Source of the DNA: Vermamoeba vermiformis
Lineage: Eukaryota
Length of the DNA stretch: 64,000 nt
NCBI GenBank assembly: GCA_045837725.1
Contig: JBEWZL010000188.1
Coordinates: 1 to 64,000, forward strand
Reading direction: 5' to 3'
The position numbers and the translations under genes are program-made. The notes under the pieces are model-generated. The model made no database searches and was not told where the DNA came from. It worked only from the letters and a program-made list of their open reading frames with translations. Numbering within the stretch: position 1 is the stretch's first letter; each line of letters begins with the position of its first letter. Of the stretch, positions 1-6,927 are shown piece after piece.

Positions 1-23
1 TGGCAAGATCCACGAGTCTCAGC
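1..23 (+). repeat. Left terminal inverted repeat (possibly truncated by the window start)
   Basis: 22/23 identity to the reverse complement of 5202-5224. Confidence 0.8.
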
Positions 24-217
24 TTATGAGAAATTGCAATATGTAACCAGAACAAGAGGAAAACTGCAAAAGTTTAACAAAAATAAAGGCATTCGATGAT
101 GAAACAGCAAAATTTAAACATAAAAGGAGTACAAAAATAAATTCTAAGAATACCAATTTATTTAGTTAGTAGAGCAAAAACCTTCGAACAAGGATAAAAA
201 GATCTACAAAAAGGTGC

Positions 218-2945
218 TTACTCATCTTCATCTGTTAAAACAAATCGACGGACTGGTGACATTTGCCTGTCTTCCGCAACACCAACATCAGCTTCAGAAT
301 CATTGTTGTTGTTGTTGAATTTTGGCATTGGTGTGGTACCTCGGACACTTGGAGTAACAGGCAACAAAGGCTCATCAAAGGCGTCTGGCAAAAAAGCTTT
401 GGCTGGAGTGCTTGGCTGATGCACTGTCCCCTCAGGTGCAGCAAGAGAGGACACAGCAAGGGCAGCAGAGACAGCTAGAGCAGCTTGGGGGTCTTCGACA
501 GAGCGACTCAAAACTCGGCAAACGTGGGCTTTAATCTTGTTCTTCAGTGGGCCGTTGGTGATGTAGCCCACGTAGCTGCGGCTTGATAGGGCAGCAGCAA
601 TGTAACCGGTCTGTAAATGAGTTAGTAAAGCAACGTGAAGGTTACAACACGACATACACCAGAGAAGTTGTTGAGCTCCAAAATAACACCATCAGTAGGA
701 GTGTACACAGAGAAGATGAAAGACAGAACCTGGACTGGAGGTTGGCGTGGAAACAACGCAGTTGAGGTCAAACTGAGCTTTTCACGAAGCATCTCATAAG
801 CAGGAGGTGTTTTAAAGACACCATGCTGCCAATTTGGGTTGTAATGCCCATGCTTGACCCAGACACCACCAGTGGAATTAAAACATGGAGCGTTGCCATC
901 ACGGAGTCGCAAGAAGTAGAAATCCCAGGTGGTTTGAACGGGATTAATGCCAGTGAAGGACTTAACAGGAGGGGCGCTCAGGCATGCAGTGTATTTGAAC
1001 TCGAACACCAAAGGATTCTGTGGTTGAGAAAGCGAGTGAAAAATTGAATACGCTGCACTCGGATCTGCAAGAACAACCAGGCGAGAAGCAAGATGCATGC
1101 ATTTGAGTATTGGCTGCAGCAAGGAGTTGCGGAATTGCTCAGCAGTTTCAAGCACTAAGAAAATAAGATCCTCTTTGAGTTGCAGCTGAATGTGAGAGAA
1201 GGAGTTCACCACTCGGAAATGCGGGTCAAAGTGCTTTTCAACATTAGCCACTAGTTCTTTGCGGAAGGGAACATCCTCGTCCACGTCACTCTCGGATTCA
1301 TCATTGCCAGGCACAGTAATGACAGCGCCTTCGTTGTCGTCCTTCTTCTGCGAAACATAATGAGAAAAAGAAAAACGCGTGGCGCGTTTTTGGTGACTTA
1401 CATTCGGGCGTGACTTTTTTTGAGGTGGTTCTGCATCTGCAGGTGCAGCAGGGTCCCTGTCACGCTTTCTGGATTCCTTTTCTGGAACCGGGAGATCAAC
1501 AGGCAAGCGTTCTTTCTGAACCTTATCTGCAGCTTTTGTGTTCTTTGACGCAGTTGGCGACTTCTGAGACAAGTCAGATTGGTGGTGGCAAAAACGCGTG
1601 GCGCGTTTTTACAGGTACTTACTAGGACTGTTTTGGTTGTTGCAACTGCTTTGACTTTCACGTTCTTGACAGCCACCGAGGCGTTCAAATCTTTGATGAA
1701 GGCTTGCATTGCGGCATTCTCCAAGTCATTTGCTGTAGCAGTCTCCAACGCTTCAAAAGTTCCAGCTTGGATTGCTTCCACATAGTCTTCCAGAAGATCA
1801 GCATTGGGTGCCTGTTTCCTGACATAATCAACCATTGAAACAATGTGCGCTTGACGAGCAACGATACCAGAAAATTCTGAAAATGATTAGATATGAAAAA
1901 CGCGCCACGCGTTTTTGCTTACCAGTCAAACTTGCTTTGTAGTCGTTTTTTACTGCCCAATTTACAAACTCCTCAATAGCTGTTAGTTTGTACATATCGT
2001 CCAACTTCCAGAATGCTTTGTTCTCAGTGACGCAGGATAGCTTCATCGGGTTTTTGTAGCCATACTTCAAATGCAACTCTTTGAGTTTGTTGTAAACCGC
2101 GTTTTTGGTGATGTCATCAGCTCCTTTGTTTGTTAGCTTGTTGTATGCAGTGTACAACTTCTTGGCCGAGTCCAAAGCAAGCCCATCTCGTTTTCCCTGG
2201 AGAACGCGTTAGGTGGAATTATCACTTTCAATATTGGTACTTACAGATAACTGGTGAATGCGCTCCCAGTTTACCGTCACCTTTTTACCCTTCGCTTTTG
2301 TTCGGACACCAGGCATTTCGAGGTACCGAATGAGCTTCTGCAGGTACTCGAACCAAGGGGCTTTGGCAGTACCATCTTGTGCTTTGGCATTATTAGCACC
2401 GGCAAGAACCTCTCGTTCTTCTTCAGACATGGCAACACCATTGAGGGAAGCTTTCAAAATGAGGCACGGCCATTCTTCGATATCACTACAACATGTTAGC
2501 ATAAGCAAAAACGCGTCACGCGTTTTTACTCACTGGCTTTGGAAAACTTCAAAACGGTGATTTCCGCCAAGAATTAGGTACTCCGGCTTCTTGTCTTTGT
2601 TAACTTTTTCTTCTTCTGGAAGCTCCTGTAACAGAAAAGGCTCGCTGTAATCCAGGCCTTTGTCGAAGTTTCCGCCACCCATTTTAGTGATTTGTTGTTC
2701 GATGGTTTTTTTGCCTTCTTCCGTCACCAAACGGTAGTTTCCTGCGTAGTGGTTAGTAAAAACGCGCCACGCGTTTTTGCTCCCGTACCTCGTTTTGTCA
2801 TTTGTGCCAGTAGAACATTGTGTGGCTTATCGAACTTAAGCCATTTCTGGAGCAGTTCTACAGGCTTTTCAATGTTTACGAGCTCCTTCTCCTCGTCTTT
2901 TTCCTCCTGTTTCTTGGAGGCATTTCTTCTATTTGTGTTGCTCAT
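218..2945 (-). CDS. Transposon partner protein, 792 aa: ParB/Srx-like N-terminal domain, low-complexity linker, degenerate N4/N6 DNA-methyltransferase-like domain
   Basis: Eight exons (2945-2789, 2741-2534, 2485-2245, 2196-1923, 1876-1623, 1563-1402, 1347-658, 610-218) joined by GT-AG introns give an open 2379-nt frame. ParB-like motif: YLILGGNHRFEVFQSHDIEEWPCLIL. MTase-like motif: RQPPVQVLSFIFSVYTPTDGVILELNNFSGTGYIAAALSSRSYVGY. Confidence 0.8.
1371..1391. repeat. 21-bp palindrome copy inside intron 1348-1401 (minus-strand gene)
   Basis: AAAAACGCG-TGG-CGCGTTTTT; the intron reads GTAAGT...TTCGCAG on the minus strand. Confidence 0.95.
1590..1610. repeat. 21-bp palindrome copy inside intron 1564-1622
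   Basis: AAAAACGCG-TGG-CGCGTTTTT; the intron reads GTAAGT...TCTCAG on the minus strand. Confidence 0.95.
1896..1916. repeat. 21-bp palindrome copy inside intron 1877-1922
   Basis: AAAAACGCG-CCA-CGCGTTTTT; the intron reads GTAAGC...CTAAT...TTTCAG on the minus strand. Confidence 0.95.
2507..2527. repeat. 21-bp palindrome copy inside intron 2486-2533
   Basis: AAAAACGCG-TCA-CGCGTTTTT; the intron reads GTGAGT...CTAAC...TGTAG on the minus strand. Confidence 0.95.
2758..2778. repeat. 21-bp palindrome copy inside intron 2742-2788
   Basis: AAAAACGCG-CCA-CGCGTTTTT; the intron reads GTACGG...CTAAC...CGCAG on the minus strand. Confidence 0.95.
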
Positions 2946-3088
2946 GTTTGAAGGTAATGAATAATGAGCGCAGAAAATTTTTTTGTTGTCGACGGTTTGA
3001 CTAAATGTTGACCGTTGACCAAATGTTGACCAGGTCAAAAAGGAAAAACGCGCCACGCGTTTTTGCTATTTATTTAATCACAACAACA
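2946..3088. promoter_or_regulatory. 143-bp divergent promoter region containing one palindrome copy (3044-3064) and GTTGACC direct repeats
   Basis: Lies between the two head-to-head ATGs (2945 on minus, 3089 on plus). Contains AAATGTTGACC twice and AAAAACGCG-CCA-CGCGTTTTT. Confidence 0.65.
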
Positions 3089-5123
3089 ATGGACACACCT
3101 CTTCTTAATGTGGTTCTTGCTCTACCACCCCACGAAATCGAGCCCGCTATTTTGGAAGTTTTGCAGCATCAACAAGTTACTCTGCACTTACGTGTTCTGA
3201 AACATGCTTCAGTCCAGCATGCTCTGCTATCCAATTATGGTAGATCCCTGCAGATTGCGGCTAGCAGTGAACGCACTTCGGGTTTTTTCCGTGGATCTTT
3301 GTCCTCAATGCTTCACGCTTCAATTGACAAGGCAGCAGTTGCTTCACTGCTTAACGTTTCACCAAGCAGTGTTTCTCGTGCTCTTGCCAAATCAAATGAA
3401 CGATATCACACTGCAATGATGACTGGCATTCACAACAAGTTTGCTTCCCCAACGAAGTACAAAGTTAGTCGCCTTCCAGTGGCCACCTCCATTGTAACTG
3501 ATTGGATCATTTCACACTGTCGACCTTCTGCAAACTCAGCCAATGTAGTTCGCAATCGCAATGCTGATGGCACATGGTCTTATGAAATAATGCACTATCG
3601 CAATGAGTCAATTGCAGAGCTGTTCACCAAGTACAAGGTATGTACCAAAAACGCGTGGCGCGTTTTCTAACACCCTTCAGGTGCAACATCATGCAGATGC
3701 TGTCGGCAAATCTACATTCTATTCTCTTGTGCCCAAATGTGTTTATCTTCAGCCCTACTATTCTGGTCTCTGCCCAACCTGCGCATCGGATAAACATTGG
3801 CAGATGATGCTTTCTCGAAACAGGCGATCATGGCACGCCGACTGCCACTGCCAGTGCACCTACTGCACAGTTTGCAATCATGCGCCATTATGCCCTTCTG
3901 ATTGTGTTTGCAAGGGTGATGAGTGTCCTATTGAAATGTCAAATATTCCACAACAATGGATTGTCCCTCAGGCCAGCAAAGCTCTGCACAATGACCGTGA
4001 CAAGCATGCCCCAAATCAAATGGTTCATGTATGGCAGCAAGGCACACGGCGCCAGTTCATGGAGAATTGCAGTCTTGTTGCTGAAAGGTGCACTGATCAC
4101 AAGCTTCATGTTTCTTGGCAAAAGCAAATTGTTTCAACACTTAAGAAGAAGCTTCCTTGGAACACTGTAATGATGCGCTGGGATTTCTTAATGAACTATT
4201 CCCATGTTAGCTCGGTTGAAGTGGGCAATGCTTTCTATGGGCGCCGGCAGTCTACTGTTCTAATTGCCACTGTCTGGTATCATGGACCTGACAGTACACC
4301 AGACTCACCAAAAATCACTAAAACCTACCATGCATTTGTCAGCCCTTACCTGTCCCATTCTTCTTTGGTTTTTCAAAAAGCGTTTGCTGCACTACTTCCA
4401 CAATTGGATTTGAACACAGATGTTGTCAACTGCATCATTCTCTCTGATGGAGGCATGCAGCATTTTAAAAACAGAATATCAATGCATTGGGGAACAACTG
4501 TCTTCAACAAGTTCAATATCCGCTTACGTTGGATAATTGACCCTGCTTACCATGGCAAGGGTGAATGTGATGGCCGTGGTGCTAAGCTGAAAAAGAAAGC
4601 TAAAATTCACGTTCTCAAAGAAGATGGTTTCCTTGATACTCCAGAACAGCTAGCCAATTACTGGAATACAGTGCCTGGTGGCACTTCGTCGTTTCTCAAC
4701 ATAGACTGGGAGGATACAGAACAGGATGTGCAAACGATAAATGGCATTAAAGCCTGCTACGACTTCTGCTTCTCACGCAATGAAACTCAGTTGTACATGA
4801 GGAAATGGCCTTGTGTGTGCACTGACTGCCTCGACTTTAACTTTGGCAGTTGCAAGCGAAGTGCTCAAGTAGGAGAATGGTTGTTTCGTCAGACAAAGCC
4901 AACCACTGTAAATCACCCAAAAGGACTCAACCCTCCTGTTGTTGTGCAAGAAGAAGTAGAACACTGTGAGGTGGAGAAAATCGTCGGTAAACGTACGTTC
5001 AAAGACAAAGTGCAGTATCAGATTAAGTGGCTTGGCTTCACAGAAGACTACAATGAATGGAAGTACGAAGATGAAATGGATTGCGAAGACCTTGTTCTTG
5101 CTTTTGAAAACGATCACAAATAA
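3089..5123 (+). CDS. DDD-type transposase (Sola-like), 663 aa, with N-terminal HTH, Cys-rich regions and C-terminal chromodomain
   Basis: Exons 3089-3637 and 3681-5123 (43-nt intron GTATGT...CTAAC...CAG, phase 0). Putative catalytic Asp motifs: RWDFLMNY, ILSDGGMQHFKN, HGKGECDGRG. HTH-like KAAVASLLNVSPSSVSRAL. Chromodomain EVEKIVGKR...YQIKWLGFTEDYNEW. Confidence 0.85.
3647..3666. repeat. Palindrome copy inside the single transposase intron 3638-3680
   Basis: AAAAACGCG-TGG-CGCGTTTT, followed directly by the CTAAC branch point. Confidence 0.95.
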
Positions 5124-5201
5124 AAATGCAACCCTTTTATTTTTGTACAATAATTGCAATTTCAACACAAAAATAAATTCTTGTAAATATTGCCTGTTTT
5201 G

Positions 5202-5224
5202 GCTGAGACTCATGGATCTTGCCA
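5202..5224 (-). repeat. Right terminal inverted repeat
   Basis: GCTGAGACTCATGGATCTTGCCA is the inverted copy of 1-23 and lies 78 bp after the transposase stop. Confidence 0.8.
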
Positions 5225-5422
5225 TATTCTTCAGTATAAAATGCTTATGTAATAATAAATAAGGTTGATTGGTGCTTCAGAACAACGTAAGCGAAACCGA
5301 GCTGATCAACTGATTGAAGAGATCAACGAGCCATATAAAAACAATAGTATTAATCAATATAGTACAAAGAGGTGCTAATAACACAATACGTCATCAGCTA
5401 TTAGGGTCAAAGTTTGGTCAAG

Positions 5423-6927
5423 TTAGTGAGTTCCATTGCCCTCGCGCATCTGTCCTTCTTCAATGTTCAAAATGAACTCTTGCAATTTAGCAATATATTG
5501 ATCGGTATAATCTGACTCGATATCGTTGTGACCGGCACCTTCAATCCACAGATTATATTTGTTTTCGTGCTTAATTCCGTTGAACAATTTCTGTAGCAGA
5601 TCCAAAAATTAATACTTCGTCTATAATATATTAGTATATATATATATACCTTGCCGTGCGATGAGTCGATGACTTGATCCTTAGTGCCGTGGATGATTAA
5701 TGTGGGACATTTGATTTTGCCAATTTTGTCGATGTTAGGAAAGATGTCCATAGGCAAGGTAATTAAAGTGTTTCTAACCACTCGAATAGCCTATAATAAT
5801 ATTAATATGATGGCACGTGTGCGATATTAATGGACTTACCGAACATAATCCGCTTTGTAAGATCAATCCACCGACTTCGTTTTTGTACGCGAGATCCGTT
5901 GCTGAACCACTGCCCAAACTTCGTCCAAAACTGTACAAATCATATTAATATGTTTATATATAAGAGGGATAGTCCCGAGATGGCAATTTAATTAATTTAG
6001 ATGGCAAGGAAAATGTTCGGCGGATCGAAGCAAAATTATTTGTCGCCAAAGAAAGCGCATATTTGCATCAAAATAATATAATAAGCAATACTTACGAGAT
6101 AATGTCTTTAGGAGCCACTTGGCGCTCAGTAGTTAAGTAGTTGTAAACGGATTGGATGCTCGCGTAACAGTAGGCTTCTTTAGGAACAATAGGCGTCGTG
6201 TGATCCTTCTCTGTTAAGCGAGACTCGCCGTATCCACTGTATTCCCAAGCGATTATATTAATCTGTATTAATAGAAGTGAGTTTTTGATGTTTGCGTAAA
6301 GTTTCGGATTTGGCGGTTGTGCCGAATACTTGGTTTGGCAATATTAATCCAAGCAAAGAATAGACTATAAGAACGTACAATAAAGTTAACAATAATAAGC
6401 TTAAAAGAATTGAAATAATTATTCCGGTTGGTTATTGTTGAAATCAGATTCTGTAACAACTGTCTTGATCGTGTACTTACGTTGAGCATTTTGCTTAATT
6501 GACGAATCCATGGCTCTAATTGAATTATATCCTCAGCATTTCCGTGCGAATAGACCATATATTTCGACCTGTCAATTCAGAAAAATAAAAATTAATTCAT
6601 TCGATCTCGTGCCGATAACCATATTTTTGATTTTCGAAATAATATCATTATAAGAACAATATTACAGGAATATTATTGAAAAATAGCGGTTACAAATCGT
6701 TGCAAATTAAATGGAATTGCAACGTTGCAGATGTAGCTTAAAATACCAATAAAGAAGCGAATATTATTAAATTATTAATAATCTACTTACGAATAATTAG
6801 TTTGTGCTAATACGCAAGGGAAATGATGGCCGTATTTATTTGTAAGCCAGATCCAGTCTTCTCGTTTTGTTGCCGATCGTCTTCTAACAGGAGGAAGGAA
6901 TGCGAACTTTTCAACGATACCGCCCAT
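5423..6927 (-). CDS. ABHD17: Alpha/beta hydrolase, ABHD17-like depalmitoylase (multi-exon)
   Basis: [28 protein letters not shown] nucleophile elbow, [16 protein letters not shown]. Confidence 0.85.

Follow-up and report, generated by a model that had tools for sequence, protein, structure and literature searches.

A two-gene DNA transposon of Vermamoeba vermiformis with a probably functional array of 21-bp palindromes in its promoter and mini-introns

The first 5224 nt of a 64,000-nt stretch of the Vermamoeba vermiformis genome (assembly GCA_045837725.1, contig JBEWZL010000188.1, positions 1 to 64,000 of the forward strand; hereafter the window) form a DNA transposon of 5.2 kb, bounded by terminal inverted repeats (TIRs), with two divergent genes, one for a transposase and one for an accessory protein that we call the partner. 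Seven near-identical 21-bp palindromes lie in the non-coding DNA of this element, six of them inside very short introns and one in the promoter region between the two genes. We conclude that this array is real and non-random, and that it is probably functional. Our preferred explanation, held tentatively and with somewhat less than an even chance of being right, is that the palindromes and a protein encoded by the element constitute a self-recognition module, the partner being the most likely binder. An earlier account made from the letters alone (the sequence-only reading) had described a TIR-bounded element with a chromodomain transposase, a divergent gene with a ParB-like GGNHR motif, and seven palindromes of which six are intronic; these anatomical features were all recovered here.

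The palindrome has the form AAAAACGCG-N3-CGCGTTTTT, with six exact copies and one carrying a single mismatch. A scan of the whole 64 kb with the pattern AAAAACGCGNNNCGCGTTTTT, allowing up to two mismatches, returned seven matches against 0.00 expected; none of 100 shuffled sequences had any match, and the other 59 kb of the window holds no copy. Among the non-homopolymer palindromes with arms of at least 7 nt in the window, only this one recurs more than twice. The half-site AAAACGCG is found 16 times against 4.17 expected, 15 of these inside the element. All seven full sites are in introns (partner introns 1, 2, 4, 5 and 6, and the transposase intron) or in the promoter, where the copy stands 25 nt upstream of the transposase ATG, and they take up 147 of the 853 non-coding nt of an element whose coding share is 83.7%. 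The six intronic palindromes begin 6–12 nt after the GT, and the introns that hold them have only their splice signals and the palindrome in common. The orientation of the central triplet relative to transcription is mixed (three partner introns have TGG or TGA, two have CCA), as fits a symmetric DNA site. The array is internal (1371–3667), with no site in the terminal 1370 and 1557 nt, and both the TIR and the subterminal motif AAATTGCAAT are unrelated to the palindrome, which is therefore not an end-recognition site. A role in binding the transposon ends was rejected on these grounds of position and sequence; the end synapsis and target immunity entertained by the sequence-only reading find no support in sites that avoid the terminal 1.4–1.6 kb. 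An E2F-type site was likewise rejected, the polarity of the T-run being wrong for such a site. Arrays of the 21-mer were found in none of 185,579 prokaryotic genomes, where its 54 loci each have a single site, and the pattern occurs once in IMG/VR.

The gene models on which this placement depends are internally consistent (Table 1). Excision of seven GT-AG introns from the partner gene leaves a single open frame of 792 amino acids, reproducing the frame of the sequence-only reading, and all eight predicted introns of the element are of 43–59 nt, with a GTRNGN donor, a YAG acceptor and a CTAAC/CTAAT/CTGAC/CTCAT-like branch box 9–12 nt from the acceptor. Exon-sized homologous open reading frames (ORFs) from other sources (P0007–P0015) stop at the same exon boundaries as the partner gene; introns 1 and 2 occupy the same positions in relatives, and intron 4 probably does too. 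The 23-nt TIRs are complementary at 22 of 23 positions, and the left arm begins at the first base of the window. Two further motifs are found at both ends, AAATTGCAAT at 30–45 and 5150–5165 in inverted orientation and the 15-nt ACAAAAATAAATTCT at 131–145 and 5167–5181 in direct orientation, and these are candidate transposase-binding sites. The promoter has a tandem 17-nt repeat at 2997–3031 (TTGACTAAATGTTGACC / TTGACCAAATGTTGACC) and four TTGACC, direct at 3008, 3015 and 3026 and inverted at 3033; two of them are within the tandem repeat, whose first unit also contains a fifth TTGAC core, and the cluster adjoins the promoter palindrome and may be a second regulatory motif. A search of the window against Rfam gave no match. 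A DNA run with the same organism label contains the element in short contigs, with pieces identical to the window at depth 36–38 and pieces with 16–17 differences per 423–464 nt at depth 58–100, the flank being at about 100–120; since identical and divergent pieces are both present, more than one variant copy exists.

Two metagenome contigs (L001 and L002) carry one type of related element, truncated and frame-broken, with 75% identity to the transposase, about 55% over the N-terminal half of the partner and 42–56% over partner residues 24–277. Neither has an intact palindrome. However, when the pattern was made tolerant of CpG transitions, L001 gave seven matches against 1.19 expected, a number reached by none of 200 shuffles, and with at most one mismatch outside the CpGs it still gave two against 0.00 expected. 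The four best sites of L001, with up to three other mismatches, are in partner intron 1 (three sites; this intron is now 0.3 kb) and in the transposase intron (one site), and weaker remnants can be seen by eye in intron 2 and in the promoter. These four sites have lost 14 of their 16 CpGs, 13 of them through C>T or G>A. Because decayed palindromes lie in the homologous introns of L001, the intronic array is older than the divergence of the two lineages; how many palindromes an intron holds can vary. In the transposase intron of L001, just after the decayed 21-mer, there is a different perfect palindrome of 25 nt (GCCGATATTTGG-A-CCAAATATCGGC, at 3653–3677). Two more distant loci, L003 and L004, have 45–46% transposase identity and are decayed and truncated; in L003 a retrotransposon with reverse-transcriptase/integrase-like ORFs (2–959) is inserted upstream and cuts off the partner gene.

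CpG has an observed/expected ratio of 1.22 in the host DNA of the window. For the element the ratio drops to 0.69, or to 0.60 once the palindromes are taken out; it is 0.26–0.30 over the whole loci L001 and L002, 0.16 over the whole locus L004 and, counting its element part, 0.20 for L003. In this family TpG/CpA is in excess and TpA is not raised, and the relative P0001 has the matching Arg>Trp/Cys changes. The pattern points to a CpG-specific process that affects the transposon family and not the neighbouring host DNA, either deamination of 5-methylcytosine or a CpG-directed process akin to repeat-induced point mutation. In the intact copy, in contrast to the depleted element around them, the palindromes have kept 28 of 28 CpGs, and this retention, the best sign of selection that can be had from sequence only, suggests that the sites have been maintained by selection.

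What would bind them? The partner is the best candidate, and its N-terminal half is the part conserved in other sequences. HMMER with this half against 1.84 billion representatives retrieved no ParB, only nine exon-sized fragments, all belonging to the same small family. The fragments conserve both GGNHR (partner residues 111–115, window 2554–2568) and LAGxxNxKxQxGxAKAxWFEY; P0008 and P0009 keep GGNHR, P0015 has GGNHC in its place, and the decayed L001 has GGSHQ. The label of ParB-methylase-like protein given by the sequence-only reading stands in part, on two kinds of evidence for its first half. The ESM Atlas model of the L001 frame (pLDDT 0.54) has ten structural neighbours listed, all ten in ParB_N, IbrB-like or DndB clusters, with TM 0.45–0.50. 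In addition, hhalign against 13 bacterial ParB ORFs aligned 74 columns in the canonical register, GGNHRFE on GERRFRA and WPCLIL on IPAVV, with a score of 18.1 (P 0.073) that none of 200 column shuffles reached. We therefore regard a ParB/Srx-like domain in the partner as probable, making no claim of Pfam family membership; GGNHR looks more like the Srx/ParB-nuclease type. The partner also has a conserved helical middle part and a basic linker resembling a nuclear localisation signal. Its middle region (about residues 240–290, window ~1950–2130), with IHxxYGxxNPxKL...FW, aligns again to the box-I part of ParB_N at a non-significant P of 0.76; the match may be coincidental, or it may mark a second ParB-like repeat that has degenerated.

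For the C-terminal half, the ESM Atlas feature search of exon 7 gave a lead, all of the matches listed being N6_N4_Mtase clusters (score 0.88). A profile hidden Markov model (HMM) built from four methylases placed FPRQPP...NNFSGTGY opposite HPTQKP...DPFFGTGT, in register, and in hmmsearch the partner ranked third among 1001 sequences (itself and 1000 shuffles). When the alignment was relaxed, the landmarks of the beta class fell in colinear order, with ADPSAAY opposite ADPPY, and the S-adenosylmethionine-binding FxGxG is preceded by an HPTQKP-like motif. A search of 5.8 billion clusters found no homologue of this half. A methylase-like domain is likewise probable, if a little less so than the ParB/Srx-like one, and possibly without catalysis; here too Pfam family membership is not claimed.

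The transposase bears at its C-terminus a chromodomain of the HP1/CBX type (Pfam Chromo, PF00385, E 3.3e-9; its 37 bits exceed the cut-off of 25.1). With the AlphaFold model, all 12 Foldseek matches at E ≤ 0.001 were HP1/CBX chromodomains, the best being CBX1 (6d07_A, E 1.9e-4, TMt 0.88, 40% identity). At the first position of the aromatic cage this copy shares a Cys with P0001; of the five other relatives with a chromodomain, four have Tyr or Phe there and P0005 stops before it. Reading of methyl-lysine may be weakened in the Cys-bearing sublineage. In exon 2, the invariant acidic columns D168, D256 and E295/D297, in RWDFLMNY, ILSDGG and GKGECDG, are a candidate catalytic triad. The core has an RNase-H-like order in the AlphaFold model (b1-b2-b3-a1-b4-a-b5), although the model is poor (mean pLDDT 51); Foldseek returned only weak RNase-H-like rows for it (SPARTA/Ago, probability 0.6–0.84), and no Pfam transposase family matched the pieces of the protein. 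The family is rare: six homologues of the transposase were found among 5.8 billion clusters and four true loci in JGI metagenomes, and an alignment search of the viral contigs of IMG/VR gave no locus. Three further metagenome loci (L005–L007), matched over 38 residues only, were treated as chance. One of them, L007, is a bacterial IS66-type locus, and the IS66-type C-terminal PRWDFLMNY...N resembles the RWDFLMNY box of the transposase (42% over 38 amino acids).

Table 1. Features of the transposon, in window coordinates
Feature	Position	Strand	Remarks
Left terminal inverted repeat	1..23	+	96% complementary to 5202-5224
Partner gene	218..2945	-	8 exons, 792 aa; open frame after removal of 7 introns
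Partner exons	2945-2789, 2741-2534, 2485-2245, 2196-1923, 1876-1623, 1563-1402, 1347-658, 610-218	-	
Beta-class N6/N4 DNA-methylase-like region, residues ~471-681	554..1233	-	weak statistics
Methylase landmarks, in order	1048-1065, 736-753, 605-666	-	DPSAAY, FPRQPP, FSGTG (the last across intron 7)
Partner intron 7	611..657	-	47 nt, palindrome-free
Partner intron 6	1348..1401	-	54 nt, palindrome 1371-1391
Partner intron 5	1564..1622	-	59 nt, palindrome 1590-1610
Partner intron 4	1877..1922	-	46 nt, palindrome 1896-1916
Partner intron 3	2197..2244	-	48 nt, palindrome-free, one ACGCGT
ParB/Srx-like region, residues ~42-202	2245..2822	-	remote homology, probable
Partner intron 2	2486..2533	-	48 nt, palindrome 2507-2527
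Partner intron 1	2742..2788	-	47 nt, palindrome 2758-2778
Divergent promoter / intergenic region	2946..3088	.	143 bp, palindrome 3044-3064
Transposase gene	3089..5123	+	exons 3089-3637 and 3681-5123, 663 aa
Helix-turn-helix-like stretch, exon 1, residues ~75-110	3311..3418	+	six weak Pfam HTH-type matches
Transposase intron	3638..3680	+	43 nt, palindrome 3647-3667 (1 mismatch)
HP1/CBX-type chromodomain	4968..5111	+	Pfam Chromo and Foldseek
Right terminal inverted repeat	5202..5224	-	23 nt

In the explanation that we favour, the palindromes would be cis-acting DNA sites under selection, placed in the sole non-coding room that the element offers, its promoter and its mini-introns. A protein encoded by the element, for which the partner is the best candidate, would recognise them and would occupy the central stretch of 2.3 kb that surrounds the bidirectional promoter. 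Once bound, it could mark or shield the chromatin of its own element, a form of self-recognition with anti-silencing or autoregulation as the outcome, in a host lineage that would mutate or methylate the CpGs of the element. Its mode of action would resemble that of VANC on VANDAL transposons and that proposed for PAG3 on Plavaka, to which we return below.

Several results weigh against this explanation and against the partner as its agent: (i) At the sequence level, ParB_N (PF02195) gave no Pfam match even at E ≤ 10 on the exon pieces, the L001 frame or P0008–P0015, 9 + 8 pieces in all; PHROGs returned for the partner only rows of unknown function (E of at least 4e-4) and no annotated ParB or methylase; sequence and profile searches of the PDB gave spurious rows only, such as a designed gp41 construct aligned on Gly-rich linkers; and the reverse profile (A2) had no match in five bacterial genomes that carry ParB. 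A tblastn search against phages gave five rows, with E of at least 0.9 and none annotated as ParB. (ii) As an unrelated control template in hhalign, the transposase outscored ParB, with 22.1 from a chance match of 7 columns. (iii) AlphaFold followed by Foldseek, a check that the sequence-only reading had proposed for the whole spliced protein, gave for the N-terminal domain a model too poor to assign a fold: it has a pLDDT of 45.2, no Foldseek match at E ≤ 0.001 and a best VIA-align Z of 3.9, with no ParB among the matches. (iv) Box II of ParB, its cytidine triphosphate (CTP)-binding site, lies after strand 3, ahead of a further strand and an EN-type helix, and is Arg-rich (GERRxR-type). GGNHR offers a single Arg at this position, and the idea of a CTP-dependent clamp thus gets no support. 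(v) For the methylase-like half, PF01555 gave no Pfam match on exon 7, exon 8 or the 328-amino-acid read-through frame, and 16 of 200 shuffles reached the hhalign score. The catalytic tetrapeptide of beta-class methylases is (D/S)PP(Y/F), and the position colinear with DPPY reads DPSAAY in the partner, which is degenerate, so the domain may be catalytically dead or altered. (vi) The palindrome family was not found in L003 (one match against 1.23 expected) or in L004, both of which are decayed copies, and only one type of the recurrent palindrome was seen. (vii) No RNA read from three runs of the same species label fell on 1–5224, while the flanking gene got 13, 4 and 2; the flank reads are mostly 95–99% alike, and the runs may come from another strain. 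That flanking host gene (5400–6100, minus strand) is the sole part of 1–6500 with RNA reads; by eye it has very short AT-rich introns of about 29–49 nt with CTAAT/TTAAT branch boxes.

The sequence-only reading knew of no eukaryotic transposon organised in this way, a view that published elements overturn: the self-recognition layout is not new in kind, and has precedents in plant and algal transposons. In Arabidopsis, the motifs of VANDAL21 that are bound by VANC21 sit in the introns of VANB and VANC and in intergenic DNA (PMC5735166). The resemblance is one of design, a DNA transposon with an accessory gene and an array of short motifs in its own non-coding DNA, introns included, and it holds for seven of the seven sites described here. 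There are differences too: the outcome of VANC action, a family-specific self-recognition, is backed by binding experiments, whereas the present element is known from its sequence; VANC is neither ParB- nor methylase-like; and its motifs are 9-nt, non-palindromic and expanded in tandem in long introns (PMC5735166), in contrast to the one 21-bp palindrome per intron of 43–59 nt seen here.

Closer in protein content are the Plavaka elements of red algae, whose PAG3 has a ParB-like N-domain (HHpred E 0.29) joined to a 2-oxoglutarate oxygenase, with tandem inverted-repeat arrays adjacent to it, and whose PAG2 combines a PF01555 methylase with SET; in the proposal of the authors, PAG3 would bind the element that carries it, at the inverted repeats, and modify it (bioRxiv 10.1101/2025.02.11.637652). 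Both systems are eukaryotic DNA transposons in which an accessory protein has a weak likeness to ParB and which have clustered inverted repeats and a PF01555-type methylase. However, Plavaka elements are giant, their arrays are beside the gene, and the ParB-like part is fused to an oxygenase while the methylase is a separate gene (bioRxiv 10.1101/2025.02.11.637652), whereas the present element puts its ParB-like and methylase-like parts in one protein and disperses its sites in introns, all in 5.2 kb. In Ectocarpus, Sola1-1_Ec32 has a divergent gene for a 1104-amino-acid ParB-like and N4C/N6A methylase protein, suggested both to bind and to modify the transposon that carries it, with reference to previous reports from green and red algae (PMC12477816); this element is of 21.5 kb, and the accessible part of its account mentions no site array. 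Our comparison with it is by description only. A family joining ParB-HTH and Dam occurs in chlorophytes and chytrids (PMC4738411). With bacterial and phage ParB–parS systems and phage ParB–methylase fusions, the element shares clustered palindromes and, probably, a ParB_N-like domain with the box-II-like GGNHR and its fusion to a beta-class methylase-like part, and it differs from them in having no detectable sequence-family membership, no ParA partner and a eukaryotic, intronic setting. In the literature covered, neither this family nor a compact element whose two genes both have mini-introns occupied by single palindromes turned out to be described, although supplements may hold related elements.

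Other explanations have to be set against self-recognition by the partner. A host transcription factor might use the palindromes as promoter and intronic enhancer sites that time or boost both genes, the partner having some other job; we consider this rather unlikely, but it would account equally well for selection on the sites. MluI-box and CGCG-box sites resemble paired inverted ACGCG cores, and each palindrome has two such cores, in a symmetry that suits a dimeric factor; in addition to the copy close to the transposase ATG, the other sites are within 1.7 kb, in 5'-proximal introns. Yet the other 59 kb contain no full site and one half-site, so the motif is not conspicuous among the neighbouring host genes, a small sample of about 20 at most, and an element-specific site array beside a DNA-binding-type accessory gene has the direct precedents given above.

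The binder might instead be the transposase, acting through its N-terminal helix-turn-helix (HTH) in autoregulation of the promoter or in internal enhancement of transpososome assembly. The HTH-like stretch at residues ~75–110 makes it a possible binder, to be counted with the points against the partner, and a 2026 preprint reports sequence-specific activation of transposon copies by their own transposases (bioRxiv 10.64898/2026.08.24.746577). The six HTH-type Pfam matches in exon 1, however, have E-values of 0.02–0.12, all below the Pfam cut-offs, and the sites are internal, away from ends that bear different motifs; we regard this explanation as improbable.

A function at the RNA level, in which a hairpin after the 5' splice site would control splicing efficiency or the fate of the intron, is more doubtful still. 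The predicted folds of the palindromic introns are indeed hairpins of 9–11 bp, at −8 to −18 kcal/mol; that of intron 2 (−18.1 kcal/mol) pairs the 5' splice site into its stem, three of the six have z-scores of −2.3 or lower, down to −3.5, and the uniform placement of the palindromes shortly after the GT would suit such a role. But the promoter copy is outside any intron, the loop orientation varies among introns, introns 3 and 7 do without a palindrome at the same size and with the same signals, and L001 has three copies in one long intron, which a splicing hairpin would not need.

Least likely of all, and in our judgement very improbable, is that the palindromes have no function, being remnants of a small inserted repeat, like an introner or a miniature inverted-repeat transposable element, or products of gene conversion in a copy that is merely young: there is a single intact copy, and palindromic or inverted-repeat introners occur in other eukaryotes (PMC7789003), but the similarity ends at 21–25 nt, there are no direct repeats at the borders of the canonical GT-AG introns, the rest of the window has no site, the intron positions are common to diverged relatives with sites already present in the common ancestor with L001, and the CpGs are kept against the depletion of the element. 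Like introners, for example those of Amoebophrya, these are short introns around hairpin-capable inverted repeats; introners, however, form families spread over the genome within host genes, and they have repeats at the ends of the introns and often direct repeats (PMC7789003), whereas here the palindrome is internal to the introns of one element. Near-identical introns in unrelated host genes were not seen in the window, and the intron flanks are dissimilar.

Returning to recognition by the partner, a stronger form of that explanation can be imagined, and we think it improbable. The partner would be the descendant of a phage-type ParB–methylase and the whole a true parS-like system: it would load at the intronic and promoter palindromes, spread over the central 2–3 kb and, by coating or by N6A/N4C methylation, keep the promoter free of the CpG methylation that would destroy dead copies, the mini-introns being kept chiefly as slots for the sites. 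With an HP1-type chromodomain on its transposase, such an element could enter silent chromatin yet stay expressed.

If self-recognition by the partner is borne out, this would be the smallest and cleanest transposon so far to have both a self-recognition protein and its site array, with two genes and seven sites in 5.2 kb. The published ParB-like cases are giant algal elements without binding data, and in VANDAL, the single proven system, the protein is unrelated. So compact an element makes it possible to test directly whether accessory proteins of the ParB type bind and mark the transposon that encodes them, and whether introns can be kept as places for DNA sites. Finally, the comparison of CpG-rich intact sites with a CpG-depleted body provides a readout of selection that requires only sequence and could be applied to other transposon families.

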